IMG/VR virus record: IMGVR_UViG_3300011113_000415
Reading direction: 5' to 3' (one strand)
From: a virus
Taxonomy: Duplodnaviria; Caudoviricetes
Length of the DNA stretch: 64,000 bases
A program made the translations under genes and the position numbers. The notes under the pieces are model-generated. The model did no database searches, was not told where the DNA came from, and worked only from the letters and a program-made list of their open reading frames with translations. Below are positions 2,596-59,421 of this stretch, in pieces (positions within the stretch are counted from its first letter, which is position 1; every line of letters begins with the position of its first letter).

Positions 2596-3317
2596 AGTTT
2601 CAGCACTGAGCCAATTATGGGATGACGCTGGATATCACGACCAGTCATCCTGCACACTATCATGCCCGGCACAGGCTGGACTTCCAATCTAGAGCACAGA
2701 TCCAACAGGCCATTTGCGTCCTGCCGTCGATCTGCTTGTTCCACATCTCCAGTGACCACAATTCTACTGCCGGTGCCTATGCGGCTCAACAGCATTTTCA
2801 TTTGTGCAGGAGTGGCGTTTTGCATTTCATCTGCAATGATCCAGGCATGCTTGAACGTGCGTCCACGCATGTAGGCCAAAGGTGAAATTTCAACAGTGCC
2901 TTCTTCGATCATGGCCATGATCTCTGGGGGTCGGTAATATTCGCGTAGCACATCCAGCAGGGGTCTTGTCCAGGGTTCCATTTTGGCCACTAGATTGCCG
3001 GGCAAAAAGCCATGTTGTTCATCCTCCACGCCAATGGCTGGACGAGTTAGAACTATACGCTTGGCTTCGCCGCTTCTTAATGCACGGACCGCTGCCAGCA
3101 TGGCCAAATAGGTTTTACCAGTTCCTGCTGGCCCTGCTGTGATAATGATGTGTTGGTCTAGGTCGAGTAGAGCCAGTACAAGATGTTCTTGATTGCGTGT
3201 TTTGGGCAATAATTCTATGGGTCGTTGTCGCGTTCGGGGTTGCGGATTGAACTGAATTAAGTTTTCTTGGACTGTTTGCATACGTTTTTGCGCCTTGGCG
3301 CCTCGGTTTCTACTCAA
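2583..3317 (-). CDS. phoH: PhoH-like ATPase
   Basis: GPAGTGKT Walker A, RIVLTRP, GFLPG, YMRGRTF, DEMQN, GDVEQAD, RHP; TTG start at 3317 behind GGAGA SD. Confidence 0.92.
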   Translation of the reverse strand: MSRNRGAKAQKRMQTVQENLIQFNPQPRTRQRPIELLPKTRNQEHLVLALLDLDQHIIITAGPAGTGKTYLAMLAAVRALRSGEAKRIVLTRPAIGVEDEQHGFLPGNLVAKMEPWTRPLLDVLREYYRPPEIMAMIEEGTVEISPLAYMRGRTFKHAWIIADEMQNATPAQMKMLLSRIGTGSRIVVTGDVEQADRRQDANGLLDLCSRLEVQPVPGMIVCRMTGRDIQRHPIIGSVLKLYAD

Positions 3318-3469: not shown

Positions 3470-3475
3470 TAAATA
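3470..3475 (+). promoter_or_regulatory. Putative late promoter motif TAAATA
   Basis: CATAAATATC just upstream of ATG 3481; resembles T4 late TATAAATA. Confidence 0.5.
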
Positions 3476-3480
3476 TCAAT

Positions 3481-4089
3481 ATGACACTCCACGACGAAGC
3501 AATTTTTAAAGATCATACGGATTATTGGATGGTAGCAGACACCATTCGTGACATTTACTTGAGTGAGGGCAGTTTGCTTACACTGTTGGATTTTGAGCGT
3601 GTGCTGGACGAAATGGATCTGTATGCGTTCAAAAACTGGGACCGTGGCGAACTGGTACAAGGTCCTGACATTGGCAAATACAAAGTGGGCTGTATATTCA
3701 TGTGGCCCGAATCACTCATGCCCGATCCCCGTGGCGCCCGACGTTTGCTGCCATTTGACTGCGAAGTGAGATTCAAAAAAACCACTATCAAAATACCCAT
3801 CAAAGTTGAAAAACCGTCAGACTATCAAGCAGGCACCCACACAGCACGTCTAGTGGACAAGCACGTATGGCTAGTGGAAATAGTCATGCCCAAGAGTTTA
3901 ATTTCAGACATCCGCACAGGAAGTATAGAACTGGAAGATCAAGACATTGACCTAGAAGATTTGGACTCAGCCTATCAAGAAGATCTTGACAATGAACAGT
4001 ATCAAAGTGACGCCAGTGCTGATCAAGCACAGCAGTCATTACAACAACCAGGAGCACCAATTGCAGCCGCACCGCCAGTCGCTTCTTGA
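3481..4089 (+). CDS. Conserved-looking hypothetical protein with acidic C-terminus
   Basis: 202 aa ORF after a TAAATA motif. Confidence 0.7.
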   Translation: MTLHDEAIFKDHTDYWMVADTIRDIYLSEGSLLTLLDFERVLDEMDLYAFKNWDRGELVQGPDIGKYKVGCIFMWPESLMPDPRGARRLLPFDCEVRFKKTTIKIPIKVEKPSDYQAGTHTARLVDKHVWLVEIVMPKSLISDIRTGSIELEDQDIDLEDLDSAYQEDLDNEQYQSDASADQAQQSLQQPGAPIAAAPPVAS

Positions 4090-12530: not shown

Positions 12531-12536
12531 TAAATA
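12531..12536 (+). promoter_or_regulatory. Putative late promoter motif TAAATA inside a small palindrome
   Basis: caactaaatagttg immediately before ATG 12542. Confidence 0.5.
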
Positions 12537-12541
12537 GTTGA

Positions 12542-12985
12542 ATGTGGATCTTACACTTTCTTCCTGATTCAGTTATTGTATGGTTTTGCAATATCCTGCT
12601 CCTAGCGGGCATTGTGGCCACTATTGCAGGTTTTTTTGCACATCGCATTCCTGGACTTTGGCAGTATCAACTAGCATTCAAAATAGGTGGCATTTTGCTG
12701 TTGGTCTTGGGTGTTTATTTCCGTGGCGGATTGGCCGTGGAACAGGAATGGCGCGAGCGTGTGGCCGAAGTTGAAAAACGATTGCAAGTGGCCGAAGCAC
12801 AGGCTGCCGAAGCCAATCAACAAATAGAAAACAAAACACAACAACGAGTCACACAAATTCGTCAGCGCATGACCTACATCAAACAGTATGTGGATCGAGA
12901 AGTTGTACGATACAACGATCAATGCCAGATTCCTCAGGCATTTGTTCGTGCTCACAATCAAGCCGCGGAAGCACCTGCCAAATGA
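12542..12985 (+). CDS. i-spanin-like (Rz) membrane protein
   Basis: N-terminal TM helices then coiled coil; followed by a lipoprotein. Confidence 0.6.
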   Translation: MWILHFLPDSVIVWFCNILLLAGIVATIAGFFAHRIPGLWQYQLAFKIGGILLLVLGVYFRGGLAVEQEWRERVAEVEKRLQVAEAQAAEANQQIENKTQQRVTQIRQRMTYIKQYVDREVVRYNDQCQIPQAFVRAHNQAAEAPAK

Positions 12986-23545: not shown

Positions 23546-23559
23546 CGCTAAATACCAGT

Positions 23560-24600
23560 ATGAAACAACTGGTCATAATGCCGGGCGGATTCCACCCTTT
23601 CCACGCAGGACATCTTGCACTTTACCAAGCCGCCAAAGAAGCGTTCCCTGGCGCCGACGTCAAAGTGGCTGCCACCAATGATACCAGTCAGCGGCCATTT
23701 CCATTCAAGATAAAAGAAAAACTGGCTCAGTTGGCAGGTGTTTCGCCCGGAGACTTTTATCAGGTCAAAAGCCCATTTCGTGCTGAAGAGATTACAAAAA
23801 ATTACACGCCCGAAGATACTGAATTGATATTTGTGCGTTCCGAAAAAGACGCCAACAAGCCTCCACAAGCAGGCGGTATTAAAAAGAATGGCGAATTGGC
23901 TTATTTGCAACCACTTGAAGGACAAGATGTTCTAGAGCCCATGAACCAACATGCCTACATGGCCTACCTGCCCACAGTGGAGTTTGGACCTGGCATGACG
24001 TCAGCCACAGAGATTCGTACTGCCTGGCCCACACTCAACGATAAACGCAAGACTGCTCTAGTAATGAGTCTGTATCCTGACACACAAAAGAATCCCCGAC
24101 TGGCTGCCACAGTTGTAAAGATGTTGGACACAGCAATTGGTACCGAACAACTCAATGAATTTTTACCTGCACTAGGTGCGGCTATTGGTGGAGAACTAGC
24201 GGCTGCTACAGAACTTGGAACAATGGGCACGCTAGGTATGCGTGTGGCTGGTCATAAGATTGGTAGCGATATTGAAGACCAGTTAAACAACAGTGACGTA
24301 GAAGAAACACGTATCATTGATCCCAAACGCATTGATGTGTTCTATCGCCCTGTTCAAAACAGTCGTGGCCGACGTGTGGTGGCCAAGAATGTACCCACCT
24401 CAGCATTGGATGCACTATTGGCCAAACTCAGCGACAAGTTTGGTGTACGTGACACTGACTTTGAGTGGACTGCCGCAGAGAAATCAGTCAGCGAAGACTA
24501 TGTGGAAGAAAAGTGGAGTCAAAAGTACAAGCGGAGCATCAACTGTGCTCACCCTAAAGGCTTCAGTCAACGGGCTCACTGTGCAGGTCGCAAAAAATAA
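23560..24600 (+). CDS. HxGH (cytidylyltransferase-like) nucleotidyltransferase with appended modules
   Basis: MPGGFHPFHAGH; MTSATEIR; then LNE/F.., VEE/T.., VEE/KWSQKYKRSINC basic tail; TAAATA at 23549. Confidence 0.75.
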   Translation: MKQLVIMPGGFHPFHAGHLALYQAAKEAFPGADVKVAATNDTSQRPFPFKIKEKLAQLAGVSPGDFYQVKSPFRAEEITKNYTPEDTELIFVRSEKDANKPPQAGGIKKNGELAYLQPLEGQDVLEPMNQHAYMAYLPTVEFGPGMTSATEIRTAWPTLNDKRKTALVMSLYPDTQKNPRLAATVVKMLDTAIGTEQLNEFLPALGAAIGGELAAATELGTMGTLGMRVAGHKIGSDIEDQLNNSDVEETRIIDPKRIDVFYRPVQNSRGRRVVAKNVPTSALDALLAKLSDKFGVRDTDFEWTAAEKSVSEDYVEEKWSQKYKRSINCAHPKGFSQRAHCAGRKK

Positions 24601-25588: not shown

Positions 25589-25602
25589 CGGTAAATACAC
25601 TC

Positions 25603-28600
25603 ATGAACCTCCATGAGTTAGACCGCTACAAACTTAGTGACGCTGTAAAATTCAATGCTCGTTTGAACCCTCGACTGTGGGGCAAAGATGAGCATTTGAA
25701 GCCCCAAGTGCGCGATGCACTGATGAAAATTGCAGATGATTTCCGCGAAAGTCTGGGCGTTAAAGATCTTGATTTAAAAGACATCACACTTTCAGGATCA
25801 AACGCCGCTTACACTTACACTCCCAATTCAGACATAGATCTACACCTTGTGGTGGATATACCTGATGACCCTGTGTATCGTGAATTGTTTGATGCCAAAA
25901 AGTACGCATATAACAATCAGCATAACATAAAGATTAGTGGCTATGATGTTGAACTGTATGTGCAAGATGTAGACCAGCCACATGTGACTCAAGGTGAATA
26001 CAGTTTGATCGACAACGACTGGATTCAAGTGCCACGTCGTCAACGTGCTGATGTTGTGGATCAAAGCACACGGAGCAAATACCAAGATCTCAAACAACGT
26101 ATCAAGGCGGCTATCAAAACTGAAGATCATGACGTCATGGCCAGTTTGATGGCCAAGATCCGACAACTGCGTCAAAGCGGTCTTGATCAACACGGCGAGT
26201 TTGGTCCTGAGAATCTTGCGTTCAAGATGTTGCGCACACAGGGCTATATCCAAAAATTAGTTGATGCTAGAAACGCTGCCAAGGATCAAGAACTCAGCAT
26301 TGATGAACGTGTGAAGCCGCGTGTGACTTATGGCTTTGCCACTGAATCAAAAGACAGTTTGTCGGACACCATCAATCAGTTTGCCCGTAGTTGTATTGAT
26401 TACTTGGGTATCAAGAAGGCGCCTGAAATCAAGTTGCATACTGATACCAACTGGAGTGAGCAGACAGGTTCGTTTGGTCAGTATGAGCCTGAAACCAATG
26501 TGTTGCACTTGGCCACATCAGGACGTCACACACTAGACATCTTAAGAACCATGGCTCATGAGTTCACACATCGCAAACAAGCAGAAAAACAAAAACTACC
26601 TGCCAATGCAGGTGAGACAGGCAGTCCTTACGAAGACGAAGCCAATGCCATGGCAGGTCGCATCATGCGTCACTGGGCAGAGAAGCATCCTGAGATGTTC
26701 GCTCATGTGCCCTTGGAAGAAGCATCAGGATACATTCCTACTAAAAAGCAAGCAAAGGATCCACGCTTTGTGATGGCTCTCACAAAAGATGTGCGTCCAG
26801 GGCAGACAGGCAAAGAAGCCAATAAACTGGGTTTGCAAACTGATGCCCAAGGTCATCCTGCATTACTAACTGCCCGACTGAATGAAAGTCTTGCTGTAGA
26901 AGATGACCGGTATGGCAATCAAGATCCCACTGGTCCAGAGTCACCACCCAAAATGCCGGACGGCACAATCAAAGTTGATGTAAGTGACATCTATGACTGG
27001 TACAAGATTGGACAAAAGATCAGTGACCTCAAGAGCATTGACAAAAAGACTCTGGGCAAAGGTCCTCCCAGCACTGTGTTGGCATTTGGTTCAGAAGAAC
27101 TTGAAAACATGTACAGCAATGCCTTGATCAACTTGGGCTTGAAAACACATGACCTAGACGAGCCCGGCGAAGAAGACAGACCTGGTTCGGGTCAAGACAT
27201 TGACGAAGCCTTGATTACTGAAACCATTGATGACGCATTGTTTGAAATCAAAATGTCTCCCTCCAATCTGCGCCAAGAAGCAGCCAAGACCGGTGCACTT
27301 GCCGGCATGGAATTTGAAATGATTGTGCCCAATACCGAGGGCGGTGACGATGGAGACCTAGAACCCGACTATGATTACGACCAACGTTGCCGTAGTATAC
27401 AAGACGCATATGACTTTTTCTACGATGGTGACTTCAATGGTCGTAGAGATGTCCAAAACCTGCGTGAAAAGATGCAGGAAGATTATCTTGAGTGGCTGGA
27501 CGAAAAGATCCAAGAAGAATGGGATAGTCAAGGTGAAGAATACATTGCGGAATGGGTCAAGAACAATGTGGATGAATCCGAATGGAATCCAGATGATCTA
27601 GAAGGCGATGCCAGAAACGAAGCACTAGAAGAATATTCTGTAAATGTTCATGCTGATCCTGCCAGTCGTGATTATCAATCAGCCTACGAAGAGTTCCGCG
27701 AAGAACATCAGGAAGATTATGATGAAAGTGACTGGTTGGATGATGCAGATCTAAGCCGCATGAGCGAAATTGAAAATGCCTACAGCATGAGTTGGCCACA
27801 TTGGCGATCACAGGGCGGTGGCGAAGCCAGCATTGAAGATGTGGCGCAGGAATTTGAAAACGCCATTGGGCGTGATGTTCGTGCCAGTGGCAACTATCAC
27901 TCAGGCAGTGTGATACGTCCTAGTCCAACTCAAATACGCTATGTTGTAGAACCTGACGGCAGTTTAGAACCAGATGATCCCAACGATCAAGGCCTGGAGT
28001 TTGTGAGTCCGCCACTACCCATAGACGAAATACTTAGTGACTTGAACAAGGTCAAACAATGGGCCAAGGAGTACGGCTGTTATACCAATGATTCAACTGG
28101 CCTGCACATCAACATTTCAGTGCCCAACTACAGCAGAGAAAACCTAGACTTTGTGAAACTGGCTCTGCTGATGGGTGACAAGTATGTGTTAGATGCTTTT
28201 GGACGTTCAGGCAATACCTATGCTAAGAGTGCGTTTGACATTGTGAAACGTCATGTGCGTGACAATCCTGAAGAGGCCGCCAAGTTGTTAGACAAGATGA
28301 AAGGCAACCTGGATCAACTAGCCACCAAGGCCATTCACTCAGGAATTACTTCAAAGTATACAAGTATCAACACCAAAGACGGCCACATTGAATTCCGTAG
28401 CCCTGGTGGTGACTGGTTAGACGAGAACTTTGATCAAATTGAAAATACCTTGTTGCGTTTCACAGTGGCCATGAGTGCGGCCCTGAATCCTGAAATGTAT
28501 CGTCAAGAATATTTGACCAAGTTATACAAATTGTTGAGCGACGGCAACAAAGATGTGGACACTATCAAGTATTTCTCAGACTATGTGGCCGGCAAGATTC

Positions 28601-51488: not shown

Positions 51489-52235
51489 ATGACAGACAAA
51501 AAGCAAACAGCATTAGACGCCATGGCAGGAGATGGCGGGTATTCAGAAGGCTACCTAGGAGGTTACATTCGTGCTAGAATGAGACGAGAAGGTAAGCGTT
51601 TCTGGGCAGGAGACAACATCAGTGAATACATCAACGATCTTGAAAAAGAAGTGTTAATCGATGAAGCAACTGAAGCATTTGAACTGGTTCTAGATCGTTT
51701 GCTTATAGATCGTGAAACCGATCCTAACAGTAAAGGCACAGCCCGTCGCCTTGCTAAAATGTATTTTAACGAAATAATGGCAGGACGTTATGAAACACCA
51801 CCAGATGCAACATGTTTTCCAAATGATTCGGCGGACCGTTACGAAGGTATGCTGGTTGTTCGCAGTGAGTTGCGGAGTATGTGCAGTCATCATCACCAAC
51901 CCGTTACTGGTGTTGCTTATATTGGTATTTTGGCTGCTGGTAAACTCATTGGACTATCAAAGTACACAAGAATTGCACAATGGTGTGCCCGACGTGGCAC
52001 TCTCCAGGAGGAACTTTGTATTGACATTGCTCGGGAAATACAACGAGCCACCGACTCAGAAAACGTAGGCGTGTACATTCAGGCCACACATGGTTGCTGT
52101 GAGAATCGTGGCATCATGGCACACTCCAGTTTGACACAGACCACTGTGTTGCGAGGCTTGTTCAAAACCGATGCAGGTGTCAAAAAAGAGTTCATGGACA
52201 ATATCAAACTGCAACAAGACTTTGCTCCGAGATAA
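51489..52235 (+). CDS. folE: GTP cyclohydrolase I
   Basis: TARRLAK, SMCSHHHQP, GLSKYTRI, LQEEL, HGCCENRG. Confidence 0.95.
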   Translation: MTDKKQTALDAMAGDGGYSEGYLGGYIRARMRREGKRFWAGDNISEYINDLEKEVLIDEATEAFELVLDRLLIDRETDPNSKGTARRLAKMYFNEIMAGRYETPPDATCFPNDSADRYEGMLVVRSELRSMCSHHHQPVTGVAYIGILAAGKLIGLSKYTRIAQWCARRGTLQEELCIDIAREIQRATDSENVGVYIQATHGCCENRGIMAHSSLTQTTVLRGLFKTDAGVKKEFMDNIKLQQDFAPR

Positions 52236-52429: not shown

Positions 52430-52539
52430 CTTGCATATCTAACCATGACGGCTCCATTCAACTGCCTGCGGAACCGGGTTTGTTGGAATGGTTGCAACAG
52501 CACTATCCTTATTCACAATATCATTTGATTGAATTATGA
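52426..52539 (+). CDS. 37-aa small ORF (not in track)
   Basis: ATGA overlaps at both ends: MTCISNHDGSIQLPAEPGLLEWLQQHYPYSQYHLIEL. Confidence 0.4.
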   Translation: MTCISNHDGSIQLPAEPGLLEWLQQHYPYSQYHLIEL

Positions 52540-52937
52540 AATACCAAACACTAGAATCAGCACAGACAGCAGGTGCGGCACCCTGGGATCTCAAAGTAGA
52601 TGAACTGTCAGACTTTCATGTTACAGTATTCCAAGATCGCTTTCCAGTCACTACAGGGCACTTGTTGTTTGTGCCCAACTACAATACCGCTGAACTTATC
52701 CGAGATGCATTTTACAGTGCTCAACTGGCTGGAGAAAGCATGGTACAACTGGGAGAATGCGATGCCTACAACATTGGTATCAATCAGGGTCGAGCCGCTG
52801 GTCAAACCATAATGTACCCACATATCCATCTAATTCCTCGTAGAACCGGGGACTGTGCGGATCCAGTAGGTGGTGTGCGGGGCGTAATTCCCCAACAACA
52901 GAACTATAAAACCCATCACTATCAACAGCCAGCATAA
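52536..52937 (+). CDS. HIT-family hydrolase
   Basis: FPVTTGHLLFVP; AGQTIMYPHIHLIPR. Confidence 0.9.
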   Translation: MKYQTLESAQTAGAAPWDLKVDELSDFHVTVFQDRFPVTTGHLLFVPNYNTAELIRDAFYSAQLAGESMVQLGECDAYNIGINQGRAAGQTIMYPHIHLIPRRTGDCADPVGGVRGVIPQQQNYKTHHYQQPA

Positions 52938-52948
52938 ATATTCTTTTA

Positions 52949-53012
52949 AGCGGTCTTGGCGTCATTCCCGCTCGACAAACTCTGCCGCCTATGCTACAAT
53001 TTAACATAGGAG
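52949..53012 (+). ncRNA. Candidate cis-regulatory pseudoknot/riboswitch-like leader of queD-yhhQ
   Basis: P1 agcgg/ccgct; loop GGCG complementary to CGCC (52986-89); cctatg/catagg hairpin covers the AGGAG SD; ATAAATA at 52934-40. Confidence 0.45.
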
Positions 53013-53018
53013 AACAGC

Positions 53019-53534
53019 ATGAATTCAATACAAATACCCGTTCCTCGCCAGTACAAATACACAAGTACCAAAGAGTATCACGACGCATTTCCTTGTGCCT
53101 ATCGACAGTGGCGGGCTGACAGCCATTGCAATCTCATACATGGGTATTCATTCTCAATGAAGTTCTACTTTGGCACAGATCACTTGGATGTACGCAACTG
53201 GGCCGCCGACTACGGTGGACTTAAAGAACTCAAATCAGTGCTGGAAGATCAGTTTGATCATACCTTGTTGGTTGCTGAAGACGATCCTGAAATCGAATTC
53301 TATCATGAAATGCAACGCAGGAACATTGCCAAACTAACTATATTACCCAAGTTGGGATGCGAAGGTCTTGCTGACCAACTATACAAGTATGTTAACGGTG
53401 TTTACATTCCGGACCTTTGGGGCCAGGGTGAAGCAGAGCGTCTCTGGTGTTATCGTGTGGAAGTACGTGAAACTCAGAGCAACATGGCTTTTAGAGAAGG
53501 CCATCGCGAATGGAATGAAGATCTGTTCGCATAA
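53019..53534 (+). CDS. queD: 6-carboxy-5,6,7,8-tetrahydropterin synthase
   Basis: CNLIHGYSF, DYGGLK, FDHTLL, GCEGLA, VRETQSN. Confidence 0.85.
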   Translation: MNSIQIPVPRQYKYTSTKEYHDAFPCAYRQWRADSHCNLIHGYSFSMKFYFGTDHLDVRNWAADYGGLKELKSVLEDQFDHTLLVAEDDPEIEFYHEMQRRNIAKLTILPKLGCEGLADQLYKYVNGVYIPDLWGQGEAERLWCYRVEVRETQSNMAFREGHREWNEDLFA

Positions 53535-53549
53535 TCTAAAGGAGAAATT

Positions 53550-54173
53550 ATGTTAGGCAAACTATTTGAAGGCGTAGATAAGAAGATGATGGCCAAACTT
53601 GCATTTTTGCATTTGGTTATTATTGTTATCTCAAACGCACTTGTTTCAATTCCAGTTGAAATCTTGGGTGTGAAATTGACCTGGGCGGCTTTTGTTTACC
53701 CAATGGTTATCTTGGCCAGTGACTTGACCGTGAGATTGATTGGTAAAGGCATTGCCAGAGCCACCATTGCGGCCGCATATCCCCTGGCCATTGTTGGTAG
53801 TATAGCAGTTGTATTGCTAGAAGGTGCACCTACCAGTGTTGCTTTACGCATTGGCTTTGGTAGTGCCACAGCATACTTGATTGGTTGCTTACTTGATGTA
53901 TACGTATTCCAATATGTGCGTGAAAAGTTCACACAACAATGGTGGGCCGCACCTGCACTCAGCATGGTTGTTGCTAACTTCATTGACAGTTATGTGTTCT
54001 TTAGTATTGCTTTCTCGGGTGGTGCAGATGAATACATGGCCGCTAACTGGCCTGAAATTGCTCTCAGCCAAAGCATCTTGAAGATTGTGGTTGGTTTCAT
54101 CTTGTTCTTACCAGCGTATGGCGTGTTATTAAACTACTTGAAGAAGCGTCTAGGCAACACCGATCAAGGTTGA
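53550..54173 (+). CDS. yhhQ: Queuosine-precursor transporter (YhhQ/VUT family)
   Basis: About six TM helices; IIVISN, YPMVILASDLT, LLDVYVF, ANFIDSYVFF. Confidence 0.75.
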   Translation: MLGKLFEGVDKKMMAKLAFLHLVIIVISNALVSIPVEILGVKLTWAAFVYPMVILASDLTVRLIGKGIARATIAAAYPLAIVGSIAVVLLEGAPTSVALRIGFGSATAYLIGCLLDVYVFQYVREKFTQQWWAAPALSMVVANFIDSYVFFSIAFSGGADEYMAANWPEIALSQSILKIVVGFILFLPAYGVLLNYLKKRLGNTDQG

Positions 54174-54183
54174 TAATGACCCT

Positions 54184-55011
54184 ATGAGCACAGATATTTC
54201 AATTCTGTTGCCCACACGTGGTAGGTCAGACATGCTGATGCGTAGTCTGACCAGCCTACATGATCTAGCCACTGATTTCACCCGTATCGAAATCTTGTTT
54301 GGCATGGACAACAATGATGCAGTAGGTCTCGAAAACATGTTGCATCATGTGATACCCTGGATTGAACGGCACAAAGTTGCACACAAGATTGTGATCTTTG
54401 AACCCATGGGCTACCACAATCTGCACAAGTACTTGAACGGCCTGGCAGAGTCAAGTGCAAGCCCCTGGTTGTTCTTCTGGAACGACGATGCTGTTATGAA
54501 AACACAGGGTTGGGACACATACATACGTGCCCGGACCGGCGAATTCAAATTGCTCAGTGTGATAACACACAACGAACATCCTTATTCTATCTTTCCTATA
54601 ATACCACGCGAATGGTTTGAAGTTTTGGGGCATATCAGTCAACACAGTCTCAACGATGCCTGGGTCAGTTGTATTGCCTATGGCCTAGACATATTTGAAC
54701 GACTGCCTGTGTATTGTGACCATGAACGCCATGATCTAACAGGCACCAACAATGATGCCACGTATCAACAGAGAACAGTGCTGGAAGGTGATCGTAGCAA
54801 CCCTTTGGATTTCAACTATCCCAGCGTGGTTGAACTCAGGATGCAAGATGCTGCCAAATTGGCACAATGGCTTCAGGATGTGAAAAATCAAGACATGACA
54901 TTTTTTGCAGAATGTTGCGAGGGCATACGAGATCCCTGGGTCAAAATGCGAGCCAACGATCCCAACCGACAAGTAGTGACCATGACTGTAGAACGATTAA
55001 ATAAAGAATGA
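54184..55011 (+). CDS. GT2-like glycosyltransferase (paralog A)
   Basis: ISILLPTRGR, WLFFWNDDA (DxD-like). Confidence 0.75.
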   Translation: MSTDISILLPTRGRSDMLMRSLTSLHDLATDFTRIEILFGMDNNDAVGLENMLHHVIPWIERHKVAHKIVIFEPMGYHNLHKYLNGLAESSASPWLFFWNDDAVMKTQGWDTYIRARTGEFKLLSVITHNEHPYSIFPIIPREWFEVLGHISQHSLNDAWVSCIAYGLDIFERLPVYCDHERHDLTGTNNDATYQQRTVLEGDRSNPLDFNYPSVVELRMQDAAKLAQWLQDVKNQDMTFFAECCEGIRDPWVKMRANDPNRQVVTMTVERLNKE

Positions 55012-56951
55012 CCAAAAGAACAATCAGTTTTGTCCAGCCCAACTTTCAACAAGGCCCCAAAGAGTTCAATGCCTATTATTTGCCTTATTCTGCAGGCGTA
55101 ATATTGAGTTATGCCTTTAGTTTTGAACACATAAGCCGGGCCTGGGCTGTGGATCAAATGATTTGGCGTAGAGAACCAATTGATGATCTTGCACCACAGT
55201 TGGCCAAGAATGACATCGTGGCATTCAGCACCTATGTTTGGAATCACAGATACAACTACAAACTGGCAGAAAAAATAAAACAAATCAATCCCGCGGTCAA
55301 GATAATATTTGGTGGTCCAGAACCTGCCATTGAAGATACTGAACTGTTTGTGAAAGAGCCATTCATGGATTTGGTCAGCAAAATGGAAGGTGAGATCACA
55401 TTCAAACGCATACTAGAAGACTTTGATACTGACTTTACTCACATACCCGGCCTATTAATCAACACGCCCAACGGTCTAGTCAACACAGGTGACTGTGCCA
55501 GAATCGATGATCTAGATCAAATACCCAGCCCTTATCTTACAGGCATCTTTGATCAAATCATTGAAGAGAACCCTGACGTGATCTGGAACGCTACACTAGA
55601 GACCAATCGCGGTTGTCCTTATCAGTGTACATTCTGCGACTGGGGCAGTCTAACCTACAACAAGGTCAAGAAGTTTGAACTCACACGAGTGTTTCACGAA
55701 ATGGACTGGATCGGAGCCAACTGTGGCTTTGTTACCATCACAGACGCCAACTTTGGCATGTTTGTGGAACGTGACAACATGATTGTGGACAAGTTGATTG
55801 AAGTACAAAAACGCTGGGGACGATTATCTTCGTTCTCCATGACCTGGGCCAAGAATCAAAAGAACGAAGTTGTGGACATTGTGAAGAAGTTGATACGTGA
55901 AAGTCCAAACTTTGGTCAAGGTCTTACTGTGAGTGTACAGAGCATGGACCACGATGTGTTAGAAAACATCAAACGTAGAAACCTAGATCAGCACAAGATT
56001 GATGAAATTTTTGCCTTGTGTGATCGCAACAACATTCCTGTGTACACAGAGTTAATTCTTGGTCTGCCAGGCGAAACAGTGCAGTCATGGAAAGATGCAT
56101 TCTGGAAAATTTTCCGTGCAGGCAATCACACAGGCATAAACATTCTGCAAGCACAGTTGCTGGAGAATGCTGAAATGAATCTGCTACAAAAACGAATGTG
56201 GAAAATTAAATCAGTTCCTGTATTTGACTACATGAGTGGCAGTTATGGCGATGCTGACCTTAACGAGTGTGTGGATGTGGTAGTGAGCACCAAAGATATT
56301 CCCAAAGAAGAAATGTTAGACACCTTGGTCTGGAACAGTTTTATTCAAACATTCCATATCAACGGCTTGACCACATACATTGCTAGATACTTAGACAAAG
56401 CACATGGCATCGAATACAGCAAGTTCTATGATGATCTGTATCAGTGGGTGCAACAGGACACATGGTTTAGTGAACAGTTTACTGAAACACGCGATTATTT
56501 TGCTAACTGGACACGACACGGATCTATCAATCATCCACCCATCGGCAACATTCAAGTGTTTGGATGGAACCTAGTGCACCGTACCACCTTGTATATGCAA
56601 CAGCAAGATCGAGTGGCCTATGTATTCGATAGTGTTGACAGATTCGTAAAAAGTCATTATAATATTGACAAGCACATATTAGATCAACTCATGCGGTTCC
56701 AGCGGAACTATGTGATTGACTATCGTGATCTTAAATCTTTACCAATAAAACAAGAATTTGATTATGATTTTCTTGGTTACATCTTGGATGACGAGCCAAT
56801 TAAACAGTCATGCACATACACATTTGACACCCCAGAGGATCAAGATATGAGTATGGACCGTTTTCTTGAAAACATGTACTTTGCTAGAAAGAGAAACTTT
56901 GGAAAAACAACTATCATCCGAGACCGCGTCCACGACGCCCAACTTGCCTGA
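55008..56951 (+). CDS. B12-binding radical SAM enzyme (class B type)
   Basis: N-terminal cobalamin-binding-like domain (FSTYVWN, IFGGP); ETNRGCPYQCTFCDW (CxxxCxxC). Confidence 0.85.
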   Translation: MTKRTISFVQPNFQQGPKEFNAYYLPYSAGVILSYAFSFEHISRAWAVDQMIWRREPIDDLAPQLAKNDIVAFSTYVWNHRYNYKLAEKIKQINPAVKIIFGGPEPAIEDTELFVKEPFMDLVSKMEGEITFKRILEDFDTDFTHIPGLLINTPNGLVNTGDCARIDDLDQIPSPYLTGIFDQIIEENPDVIWNATLETNRGCPYQCTFCDWGSLTYNKVKKFELTRVFHEMDWIGANCGFVTITDANFGMFVERDNMIVDKLIEVQKRWGRLSSFSMTWAKNQKNEVVDIVKKLIRESPNFGQGLTVSVQSMDHDVLENIKRRNLDQHKIDEIFALCDRNNIPVYTELILGLPGETVQSWKDAFWKIFRAGNHTGINILQAQLLENAEMNLLQKRMWKIKSVPVFDYMSGSYGDADLNECVDVVVSTKDIPKEEMLDTLVWNSFIQTFHINGLTTYIARYLDKAHGIEYSKFYDDLYQWVQQDTWFSEQFTETRDYFANWTRHGSINHPPIGNIQVFGWNLVHRTTLYMQQQDRVAYVFDSVDRFVKSHYNIDKHILDQLMRFQRNYVIDYRDLKSLPIKQEFDYDFLGYILDDEPIKQSCTYTFDTPEDQDMSMDRFLENMYFARKRNFGKTTIIRDRVHDAQLA

Positions 56952-57783
56952 ACGTGATCCCTCTGTAGATATCAGTATCTTGTTGCCTGTGCGTGGCAGG
57001 CCCGAACCCATGAAAAAATGTTTGCACACTTTGATCGATCATGCAAAAAATCCTGAACGTATCGAAGTGTTGATTGCATTTGATGACGATGACACAGATA
57101 CTATCAACTACTTTGTTGAAAATATTGCGCCTTATCTTGATGACATGGATGTGCGTTACAGTGCCATGCAGTTCCAGCGGCTAGGCTATATCAGGCTTAA
57201 TGAATACTTAAATGAACTGGCTCGACACAGTGCCGGTGCTTGGATGTTCTTTTGGAATGACGATGCTGTGATGACCACACAGGATTGGGATCAAGCAATC
57301 ATGGCTCACGATGGTGAGTTTGCGTTGTTACGTGCAGAAACCAATCACGCACATCCTTATGCAATCTTTCCTATTGTGCCACGCAAGTGGGTAGAGATAA
57401 CTGGACACCTGAGTCCACATCAGATCAATGATGCCTGGGTCAGCCAGGTGGCTTGGATGTTGGATATTGTTAAAAATATTCCAGTCATGGTCGATCATGA
57501 ACGCTATGATCTAACAGGCAAAAACGGAGATGATGTTTATAAAAATCGCCCTATGCTGGAAGGTAATCCTGCCAACCCACGAGACTTCAATCACATTACC
57601 TGGCGGAAGACCCGCATTGATGAATGTATGAAATTGGCTCAGCATCTTGTACCGCTTGGGCACAACATGAATCATTTCAAATGGGGTGTTGAAGGCAAGG
57701 ATGATCAAGGTCGTGACTATGATATTTGGTGCAAGATGAATGCGGCAGACCCACACAAACGCTTGAAACAATGGAAAGACTAA
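56866..57783 (+). CDS. GT2-like glycosyltransferase (paralog B); true start probably downstream
   Basis: ISILLPVRGR, WMFFWNDDA, HPYAIFPIVP. Confidence 0.75.
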   Translation: MKTCTLLERETLEKQLSSETASTTPNLPERDPSVDISILLPVRGRPEPMKKCLHTLIDHAKNPERIEVLIAFDDDDTDTINYFVENIAPYLDDMDVRYSAMQFQRLGYIRLNEYLNELARHSAGAWMFFWNDDAVMTTQDWDQAIMAHDGEFALLRAETNHAHPYAIFPIVPRKWVEITGHLSPHQINDAWVSQVAWMLDIVKNIPVMVDHERYDLTGKNGDDVYKNRPMLEGNPANPRDFNHITWRKTRIDECMKLAQHLVPLGHNMNHFKWGVEGKDDQGRDYDIWCKMNAADPHKRLKQWKD

Positions 57784-57784
57784 C

Positions 57785-58567
57785 GTGAACAATGATCAAC
57801 TGATTGACCGCATAAAGCAATATTGGAACGCACAACCCTGTAATGTAAAACACAGCCTGAGCGAACCCGGAACAGAACAATACTGGAACGAAATATCAGA
57901 ACGCAGATATTTTGTAGAACCACATCTACGTGATTTGGCCGGCTTTCACCAATGGCGCGGCAAACGTGTGTTAGAAGTGGGCTCAGGTATTGGATCTGAT
58001 GCAGTAGAGTTTGTGCGTCACGGTGCTGAGTATGTGGGCATTGATCTTTCAGCAGAATCAGTGGCCATGAGTCGTCAACGATTTAAGTTGTTTGGTCTTG
58101 ATGGCGAGTTTCATAATATAGATGCTGCCGACACCAAAAGCGTGGCCGCACTAGGCCGCTTTGATTTGGTTTACTCATGCGGTGTGCTACATCACTATCC
58201 AGACATGTCCACGTGTCTTGACAACATTCACAATGCATTAGAACCCGATGGTGAATTTAGAATGTTGGTTTATGCAAAGAATTCCTGGAAGTATGCCATG
58301 ATCCGAAAAGGTCTGGACCAGTTCGAAGCACAAGCCGGATGTCCTTATGCCCAGGCCTATTCGCACGAAGACATCTACAATCTCCTAAATGGAAAATTTG
58401 AAGTCCTAAGGATTAGACAAGCACATTGTTTCATGTATAATATACCCAAGTACCGTCAAGGTATCTACGAACTCGAACCTTGGTTTGCGGCCATGTCAGA
58501 AGAAATGCGTGAGGCCGTGAAAGAATATCTAGGTTGGCATTTATTAGTTAAAGCACGGAAAATATGA
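57785..58567 (+). CDS. Class I SAM-dependent methyltransferase
   Basis: VLEVGSGIG, GIDLS, FDLVYSCGVLHH. Confidence 0.85.
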   Translation: MNNDQLIDRIKQYWNAQPCNVKHSLSEPGTEQYWNEISERRYFVEPHLRDLAGFHQWRGKRVLEVGSGIGSDAVEFVRHGAEYVGIDLSAESVAMSRQRFKLFGLDGEFHNIDAADTKSVAALGRFDLVYSCGVLHHYPDMSTCLDNIHNALEPDGEFRMLVYAKNSWKYAMIRKGLDQFEAQAGCPYAQAYSHEDIYNLLNGKFEVLRIRQAHCFMYNIPKYRQGIYELEPWFAAMSEEMREAVKEYLGWHLLVKARKI

Positions 58568-59421
58568 GTAAACTTAAAGTAGCAGAATTGTTTTATAGTG
58601 TGCAAGGCGAAGGCAGGTACATGGGTGTGCCGTCAGTGTTCTTGCGTGTGTTTGGATGCAACTTCAAGTGTGCCGGCTTTGGCATGCCGCGTGGTGAACT
58701 CAGCACAGAAGTCAACGATATTGCATCAAGAGTACACTACTACAAAACCTACAACGAACTACCATTGGTATCTACAGGCTGTGACAGTTATGCGTCATGG
58801 GATCCAAGATTCAAGGATTTGAGTCCTGTGGTAGAAAGCAATGGCATTGTGCATCGCATCATGGAGATCTTGCCACATCGCCGTTGGGAAAGTGAGCATT
58901 TGGTAATCACAGGTGGCGAACCTTTGCTGGGTTGGCAACGTGCTTACCCAGACTTGCTAGATCACCCCAGCATGGACAGACTTCGAGAGATCACGTTTGA
59001 AACCAATGGCACCCAAGCATTAGATGATCGCTTCAAAGAATACTTGCATACATGGACATATCATCATGATCACAACTTTCGCCGAGAAGTCACGTTCTCA
59101 GTTAGTGCCAAACTACCCGGTTCGGGTGAATCATGGTCGGATGCCATTCGACCCGACGTGGTTTGTGAATACGAAGAGTATGGTTATACATACTTGAAAC
59201 TGGTGATTGCCACAGAACAGGATCTAGCAGATGCAGAACAAGCAGTCTTGGAATATCGCACAGCAGGGTTTGAAGGTCCTGTGTATGTTATGCCTGTTGG
59301 CGGTGTTGAACGGGTGTACAATCTTAATAATCGAGCAGTGGCAGAAATGGCCATGCGAAAAGGGTGGCGCTATTCAGACCGACTCCAAGTACCACTCTTT
59401 AAAAACGAATGGGGAACTTGA
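58564..59421 (+). CDS. queE: 7-carboxy-7-deazaguanine synthase (radical SAM) with atypical Cys spacing
   Basis: ELFYSVQGEG, VFLR, CNFKC-x36-CD, ITGGEP, ETNG, SVSAK, PVYVMP. Confidence 0.85.
   Translation: MSKLKVAELFYSVQGEGRYMGVPSVFLRVFGCNFKCAGFGMPRGELSTEVNDIASRVHYYKTYNELPLVSTGCDSYASWDPRFKDLSPVVESNGIVHRIMEILPHRRWESEHLVITGGEPLLGWQRAYPDLLDHPSMDRLREITFETNGTQALDDRFKEYLHTWTYHHDHNFRREVTFSVSAKLPGSGESWSDAIRPDVVCEYEEYGYTYLKLVIATEQDLADAEQAVLEYRTAGFEGPVYVMPVGGVERVYNLNNRAVAEMAMRKGWRYSDRLQVPLFKNEWGT

Follow-up and report, generated by a model that had tools for sequence, protein, structure and literature searches.

A conserved queD-leader pseudoknot of a giant lake phage resembles preQ1-I aptamers and may act as a translational ON riboswitch

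The queD gene of a giant lake phage, represented by the IMG/VR record IMGVR_UViG_3300011113_000415, is preceded by an 80-base leader, which is the region under study here; the whole stretch of 64,000 nucleotides that was analysed is referred to below as the window. The leader contains a small H-type pseudoknot that is conserved in front of queD homologs of many other phage contigs, and it is proposed, with modest confidence, to represent a new phage-specific class of preQ1-I-like translational ON riboswitches. A more detailed version of this proposal is plausible, and we would stop slightly short of endorsing it: the new ON class would sense a metabolite of the 7-deazaguanine pathway or a guanine-like one, and would gate the first committed (QueD) step of DNA hypermodification, with a promoter inside a hairpin serving as a bypass. 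To our knowledge, few riboswitch classes have been found in phages and none of them is restricted to phages, and we know of no preQ1-type ON switch.

The aptamer is about 41 nt long (Table 1). Its first stem, P1, encloses a loop of 14 nt (52954-67) whose first base is U and whose last is C, and the linker after P1, which starts CGACAAAC, leads to the 3' strand of the second stem, P2. On rereading the sequence, all positions and pairings named in a preliminary description of this DNA were found to be correct, namely the ATAAATA motif, P1, the ends of its loop, GGCG/CGCC, the downstream hairpin and its Shine-Dalgarno (SD) sequence. Two broader claims of that description, a preQ1-I-like H-type pseudoknot and its tie to queD and deazaguanine genes, are borne out by compensatory changes in P1 and P2, by a conserved anatomy under selection, and by the genes that follow the element (queD, yhhQ and queE in the window).

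A search of IMG/VR with the QueD protein returned 599 related stretches, from which 80 loci were taken for leader comparison, and the same element was recognisable in the leaders of 72 of these 80 loci despite differing upstream genes. Further copies were obtained by a DNA-pattern scan of IMG/VR, in which three of the five bases of the P1 3' strand (P1') and both P2 strands were left unconstrained, and by a scan of metagenomes in which these P1' bases were likewise free and which contributed 41 further copies, some of them marine. The collection amounts to 201 copies with 124 distinct aptamers from viral and metagenome contigs, and only one copy per locus was present in about 1.5 Mb of flanking DNA. 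A covariance model run on the 64-kb window likewise found a single copy at 52947-52995 (54.1 bits, E 1.5e-15), the next best hit reaching 8.6 bits. Directly downstream of the element, a QueD homolog is present in 150 of the 155 copies examined, and at least two QueD subfamilies are involved. The five exceptions comprise two degenerate copies and three copies with another gene first (a cupin gene, a methyltransferase gene and one of no assigned family); at locus L128, the intervening cupin gene is followed by a QueD 60% identical to that of the window. Aptamer identity stays at about 0.85 across QueD identities from 0.35 to 1.0, in pairs of 35-50% as well as in pairs above 85%, and the persistence of a nearly constant aptamer beside so divergent a protein implies strong purifying selection on the RNA.

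The same comparison bears on the idea that the leader is a translational operator bound by a protein, in which QueD or another phage protein would bind the pseudoknot. Autogenous control of this kind predicts that the motif travels with queD, as it does, and T4-type phages employ a leader pseudoknot in this manner, since T4 gp32 binds a pseudoknot in the gene 32 leader and represses by cooperative protein binding (PMC3014915). The queD leader is like the gene 32 leader in having an H-type pseudoknot at its 5' end, upstream from the ribosome-binding site (RBS). Its anatomy, however, is nearer to that of metabolite-binding aptamers, and its small size, UC and A-rich tail fit metabolite-binding preQ1-I; moreover, the aptamer is constant while QueD diverges, and QueD shows PF01242 only, with no RNA-binding domain seen. 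A protein-bound operator is, therefore, considered rather unlikely.

Some relatives lie at the edge of this distribution. A scan of 185,579 prokaryote genomes gave 45 pattern matches, only one of which was a true copy, the other matches being chance occurrences in coding DNA. This copy is located before a QueD-like gene on the minus strand of a 183-kb contig binned as a Haliscomenobacter metagenome-assembled genome (L204:4300-4460), and the contig is probably that of a mis-binned giant phage and not an indication of the host; a Bacteroidota host would be at odds with the AGGAG SD, which is strong, and with the sigma-70 consensus. Several QueD-homolog loci (L024, L031, L045, L059, L075 and L080, at about 2940-3000) are without any leader. 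In these loci the queD start overlaps or adjoins the stop of the upstream gene, whose protein ends in ...HIWGNTMGT, so that translational coupling seems to replace the pseudoknot in some relatives. As well, a divergent subgroup, partly marine (L282, L290, L294, L322 and L357), has P1 AGAGG/CCUCU or AGUGG/CCACU, P2 GACUU/AAGUC or GACUU/AGGUC, an AAAAA stretch in L3 and a platform that is short, GUCAUCAAAGGAG, and it might be of use for delimiting the minimal aptamer.

The covariation among phage queD leaders that had been suggested as a check on the structure was found, with compensatory changes spread over the 201 copies. P1 was tested on a MAFFT alignment of 93 aptamer sequences (A1), in which every P1 cell pairs, a value inflated by the motif filter, which demanded a perfect P1. 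Three of the five pairs have changed on both sides (A-U to U-A, G-C to C-G and C-G to A-U), and six compensatory pair types occur overall. The P1 covariation score was matched by none of 500 shuffles, although shuffle tests on these copies overstate significance because the copies are phylogenetically related; a slid 3' partner pairs in 42-58% of cells, and RNAalifold recovers P1 unaided. In the metagenome scan, for which three of the five P1' bases had been unconstrained, P1 was perfect in all 41 model-confirmed copies, and the types AGUGG/CCACU, UCCGG/CCGGA and AGAGG/CCUCU were added.

The P2 stem is 3-5 bp long across copies. Since loop lengths vary, A1 scrambles the P2 5' strand, and P2 was instead tested free of alignment and by re-fitted permutations. 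The P2 duplex energy with the aptamer's own tail was -5.32 kcal/mol vs -4.22 with tails of other types, and none of 5000 permutations did as well. In the second test, where the 3' strand was set by rule and the 5' strand was re-fitted for each of 1000 permutations, all four P2 positions were paired in 71 of the 124 distinct aptamers (permuted mean 43.2 +/- 4.0, maximum 57). The haplotypes include GGCG/CGCC, GGUG/CACC, GGCA/UGCC, GACA/UGUC, GGCU/AGCC, GGGC/GUCC, GACG/UGUC and GACU/AGUC; position 2 occurs as G-C (81), A-U (16) and G-U (12), position 3 as C-G (111), U-A (4) and G-U or U-G (8), and position 4 as A-U (51), G-C (20), U-A (12) and C-G (6). A helix search tolerant of bulges chose odd registers and serves as a bound only. 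Taken as they are, the P2 statistics appear supportive and not conclusive. A second register is possible in the window, in which GGCG would pair with UGCC at 52983-86, and it was rejected because GGUG/CACC and GACA/UGUC fit the 52986-89 register only. A small hairpin of the form G-N-C/G-N'-C inside the loop was rejected as well, since the remaining loop in the window would have 2 nt. An intrinsic terminator was also considered and set aside, P1 having 5 bp and a 14-nt loop without a U run, and no terminator-like site was present at 52949-52985.

The unpaired nucleotides are conserved in a pattern that recalls a preQ1-I pocket. Among the 124 distinct aptamers, the last base of the P1 loop is C in all and the base before it is U in 122. 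Type I preQ1-I riboswitches are recognised by a UC placed immediately 5' of the P1 3' strand, the C of which pairs with the guanine-like face of the ligand (PMC11625349), and the UC of the leader corresponds to this type I form of the specificity cytosine, types II and III having AC. In loop L1, the second position is C and the third is U in 121 of 124 aptamers each; the first position is U in 57, C in 51 and A in 16, so that the U after P1, once listed as a preQ1-I-like feature of the leader, is not a conserved one. L3 has 13 nt in all 124 aptamers and the consensus WUAYAAAYUCUGC, with invariant A, AAA and UC.GC positions, an invariance which was partly imposed by the search patterns and which the protein-seeded set shows as well. 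In preQ1-I, an A-rich 3' tail occupies the P1 minor groove; L3 of the leader is A-rich in its first half but has a length of 13 nt.

The resemblance of the leader to preQ1-I (RF00522), and especially to type I members such as that of Carnobacterium antarcticum (PMC11625349), lies in a small pseudoknot of H type in which P1 has 5 bp and a short P2 joins the P1 loop to the 3' tail, in the UC directly preceding P1', in a tail rich in A after P1, and in a location before queuosine or 7-deazaguanine genes including yhhQ (queD, yhhQ and queE are downstream and folE is upstream). The leader differs in that its loop, at 13-19 nt, and its L3, at 13 nt and extended by a conserved YUCUGC, are much longer, and in having N-C-U where types I and III carry UU atop the P1 5' strand. 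Unlike preQ1-I, moreover, the P2 3' strand (P2') of the leader contains no SD, is located 19 nt upstream of it and overlaps the strand opposite the SD or AUG, and, among the collections scanned, nearly all copies of the motif came from contigs of uncultured phages. The representative preQ1 riboswitches tabulated in a review all occlude the SD or terminate transcription (PMC11625349).

In Rfam 15, no family reached its gathering score anywhere in the window, and none matched at E <= 10 over 52850-53100 or at nine variant loci. The gathering score of RF00522 is 39 bits and was not reached by the leader, so a scan with preQ1 models, put forward earlier as a check, was negative for the window and for the variant loci. 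RF00522 was not found in genome G001 or in 121 genomes of its phylum, and no description of the motif was found in the literature. An ordinary preQ1-I OFF switch would account for the H-type pseudoknot, the 5-bp P1, the C before P1', the A-rich tail and the Q-pathway genes; it is, however, largely refuted by the model search, a P2' on the anti-SD arm 19 nt upstream of the SD and the much longer loop and L3 also speak against it, and it is considered extremely improbable. Membership in preQ1-I fails on the lack of a model match and of UU, on the longer loop and L3 and on the position of P2' outside the SD; of the earlier reading as a variant aptamer, the preQ1-I-like anatomy is borne out, and the leader lies outside the catalogued family. 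Another small H-type pseudoknot, the guanidine-III (mini-ykkC) riboswitch, is reportedly a translational ON switch. Its consensus and its context of guanidine exporters are unrelated to the queD-leader motif. As a side observation, the tusA-yhhQ intergenic region of E. coli K-12 MG1655 (L363:10900-11300) gave no RF00522 match at E <= 1, so the type III preQ1-I riboswitch that has been published for E. coli is not located there in K-12.

The direction of the proposed switch is suggested by the expression platform. When the downstream part of each leader was folded to its minimum free energy (MFE), 145 of 158 distinct leaders had P2' paired to the segment from SD to AUG, mostly by 2-3 shared nt. 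This overlap of P2' with the helix by which the SD or AUG is masked implies that formation of the pseudoknot would turn translation on. The majority of platforms, including that of the window, have the CCUAUG/CAUAGG SD hairpin, which takes the compensatory form CCUAUA/UAUAGG in L066 and L130. Other platforms cover the AUG with GCCAUUG/CAAUGGC and UGUCAUUG/CAAUGGCA helices (L151, L170, L033 and L078); P2' itself is the anti-AUG strand in the L041 group (UGUCGUC/GAUGGCA), and L165 has a GUCUU/GAGAC anti-SD pairing. The overlap between P2' and the RBS helix is, therefore, shared by at least four platform designs. In a partition-function model with the P2 strands blocked, mean SD accessibility rose from 0.37 to 0.55, being up in 78 of 123 leaders and down in 6, and in the AUG-sequestering types AUG accessibility rose from about 0 to 0.4-0.6. 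The 3' arm of the window hairpin, CAUAGG, masks A, G and G, that is, three of the five SD nucleotides; the calculated energy of the hairpin is -5.7 kcal/mol, and it rises to +0.5 on loss of the two C-G pairs that P2 would take. The sequestering helix includes the first queD codons (AUG GCA) in several variants.

Besides the search filter and the relatedness of the copies mentioned above, several observations weigh against an ON riboswitch. The MFE of the 97-nt window leader is -15.0 kcal/mol vs -14.7 +/- 3.0 for dinucleotide shuffles (z = -0.09), so that the window sequence alone folds no better than chance, and it is the comparative evidence that is strong. Three IMG/VR copies found by covariance model or pattern (L085, L177 and L184) have one P1 mismatch each. 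P2 is short, the sizeable groups AGCA/UGCC and GGCA/AGCC require a mismatch or a 1-nt bulge, and the permutation null for P2 is already high, GGC/GCC being common to most copies. In L160, P2' adjoins the SD hairpin without overlapping it. In the window, mimicking the pseudoknot moves SD accessibility only from 0.38 to 0.41 and lowers that of the AUG from 0.56 to 0.09, through a UAUGCU/AGCAUG helix (-3.3 kcal/mol) that can cover the AUG once P2 forms, an option limited to 36 of 117 distinct platforms of the CCUAUG/CAUAGG type. The modelled ON direction is, therefore, weak and ambiguous for the window's own leader; of the mutually exclusive folds and ON wiring proposed in the preliminary description, the overlap is well supported across leaders and the direction in the window is not. 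In addition, an ON response to the end product of a pathway is biologically odd, and ON control speaks as much in favour of a guanine or pterin compound of substrate-like or signal-like character as in favour of preQ0 or preQ1.

Two promoter-like features that the preliminary description missed complicate the picture. The first is a sigma-70-like site overlapping L3, P2' and the hairpin loop, with its -10 element within the hairpin loop. In 120 distinct relatives, the -10 hexamer has T at position 1 in 120, A at position 2 in 119 and T at position 6 in 118, and position 3 is free to vary; 116 of the 120 have an extended -10 TG, and 17-18 nt separate the hexamer from TTTACA or TATACA. Such a TAnnnT pattern is the kind of conservation that a functional -10 element would show and a hairpin loop would not. 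Transcription from this site would start near 53007, in the 3' arm of the hairpin, and would give an RNA with a free SD. The second feature is the ATAAATA box at 52934-40, which contains a candidate T4-type late promoter core; of 123 distinct upstream flanks, 105 have TAA[AG]TA, mostly 5-11 nt (mode 8) 5' of P1. The box is suggestive of a promoter of T4 late type with a start about 6 nt downstream, near 52946, three bases before P1.

A similar arrangement has been documented for the T4 genes e, soc, 49 and I-TevI, in which a promoter lies within the RBS-sequestering hairpin and the short RNA has a free RBS (PMC3014915). Like these genes, the queD leader has a hairpin that would mask the SD on the long transcript, which is kept in 120 distinct platforms, and an inner start that would free the RBS. 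It differs from gene e in the order of the promoters, the inner one being sigma-70-like, that is, of early type, and the upstream one late-like; moreover, the 5' arm of the hairpin is here also part of a conserved pseudoknot, and the starts are predicted from sequence.

The T4 precedent (PMC3014915) raises the alternative that the leader sorts transcripts independently of any ligand. The SD hairpin would silence read-through RNA, the inner promoter would give a short translatable RNA, and the pseudoknot, formed constitutively or during transcription, would counter sequestration on RNA started at the TAAATA box, without a metabolite. The conserved TAnnnT with variable middle positions, the TAAATA box 5-11 nt before P1, and the fact that triplex contacts alone can conserve pseudoknot loops are all in line with this idea. 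However, about 25 distinct platforms without the -10 element retain the aptamer and the overlap of P2' with the RBS helix, so that the motif is not accounted for by the promoter; the UC that invariably precedes P1' and an L3 of exactly 13 nt resemble a binding pocket, and the motif is strictly linked to one enzyme family and not to a temporal gene class. Ligand-independent sorting is considered unlikely, though it is the likeliest of the alternatives to a riboswitch. An explanation at the DNA level, in which a sigma-70 promoter is combined with an upstream inverted-repeat operator (AGCGG-N14-CCGCT) and the RNA fold is incidental, would fit the near-consensus promoter that overlaps the element, and half-sites bound by a dimer would also co-vary. 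On the other hand, the covariation in P2 links the loop to the promoter spacer, which models of DNA binding do not predict, the RBS-sequestering helices covary with P2', promoterless variants keep the motif, and the stretch of 14-19 nt between the arms is asymmetric and conserved; this explanation is, therefore, regarded as very improbable.

For the proposed riboswitch, a guanine-like small ligand would pair with C52967 and lock the pseudoknot; 7-carboxy-7-deazaguanine (CDG), preQ0, preQ1 and 7-deazaguanine are the candidate ligands, or else guanine or a pterin. The locked pseudoknot would remove C52988-89 from the CCUAUG/CAUAGG hairpin, and the RBS of queD, and via queD the operon from yhhQ to queE, might then be freed for translation. 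Long RNAs, arising by read-through or from a TAAATA-box start near 52946, would bear the switch, and the sigma-70-type promoter in the hairpin would yield a short RNA without the switch, which could be translated unconditionally. Early transcripts may in this way escape control, and later ones may be gated by the metabolite. If validated, the switch would mean that metabolite sensing has arisen in phages themselves for the pathway by which their DNA comes to resist restriction, and a late-type box before the aptamer together with a sigma-70-type promoter in the RBS hairpin would extend the mechanism of T4 gene e to metabolite control. Moreover, the compact aptamer comes with natural variation from about 124 distinct copies, and its ligand may be an intermediate without a known sensor.

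The ATAAATA motif is found four times in the window against 7.85 expected, in all cases on the plus strand and just 5' of genes. TAAATA-N5-ATG also occurs four times (3470-3483, 12531-12544, 23549-23562 and 25592-25605) and TAAATA-N4-ATG is present at 54998-55010, with no SD between TAAATA and ATG at any of these five sites. If TAAATA is a T4-late-type core, the mRNAs of the five genes concerned would have no leader or almost none.

Table 1. Features of the queD leader and of the neighbouring genes in the window.
Feature	Positions	Strand	Remarks
folE	51489-52235	+	followed by a small open reading frame (ORF), the HIT gene and the leader
HIT-family gene	52536-52937	+	PF01230; stop TAA at 52935-37
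Candidate T4-type late promoter core TAAATA	52935-52940	+	overlaps the HIT stop TAA
P1 5' strand AGCGG	52949-52953	+	pairs with P1 3' strand
L1 UCUU	52954-52957	+	consensus N-C-U plus variable pyrimidine-rich spacer
P2 5' strand GGCG	52958-52961	+	complementary to CGCC 52986-89
L2 UCAUUC	52962-52967	+	UC-terminal; C52967 is the candidate ligand-pairing cytosine
P1 3' strand CCGCU	52968-52972	+	pairs with P1 5' strand
Candidate sigma-70-like promoter TCGACA-17-TGcTACAAT	52972-53000	+	10/12 matches plus extended -10 TG
L3 CGACAAACUCUGC	52973-52985	+	13 nt
P2 3' strand CGCC	52986-52989	+	C52988-89 also belong to the SD hairpin
SD-sequestering hairpin CCUAUG 52988-93/CAUAGG 53005-10	52988-53010	+	11-nt loop; in MFE structure
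Shine-Dalgarno AGGAG	53008-53012	+	6 nt 5' of ATG
queD-like gene (PTPS/QueD, 171 aa)	53019-53534	+	PF01242, 7.9e-14; ATG at 53019
yhhQ (queuosine-precursor transporter, 207 aa)	53550-54173	+	PF02592; TIGR00697 112 bits, cut-off 51
queE	58564-59421	+	downstream in the same gene run

The genes of the neighbourhood are on the plus strand throughout, and the match of the QueD-like protein to TIGR03367 is under the family cut-off. The interval between yhhQ and queE (54184-58567) encodes a 275-aa ORF, a 647-aa B12-binding radical-SAM methyltransferase-like protein, which matches the KedN5-like C-methyltransferase family under its cut-off, a 305-aa ORF and then a class I methyltransferase. These genes, all of them 3' of the switch, suggest a further modification of the deazaguanine base. 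The window also encodes a member of the T4-gp43-type DNA polymerase family and a Lon-like protease. No close relative of the window was found among deposited phage genomes, the queD of Achromobacter phage Motura giving only a weak coding match. A leader peptide starting from the ATG at 52991 was considered and rejected, as this ATG is without an SD and its 42-codon frame crosses the queD start out of frame. The QueD N-terminus (53019-53050 in the window, and in homologs) varies greatly in length, with from 0 to some 25 additional residues ahead of the conserved YKY/STKTY motif, and the leader upstream is conserved.

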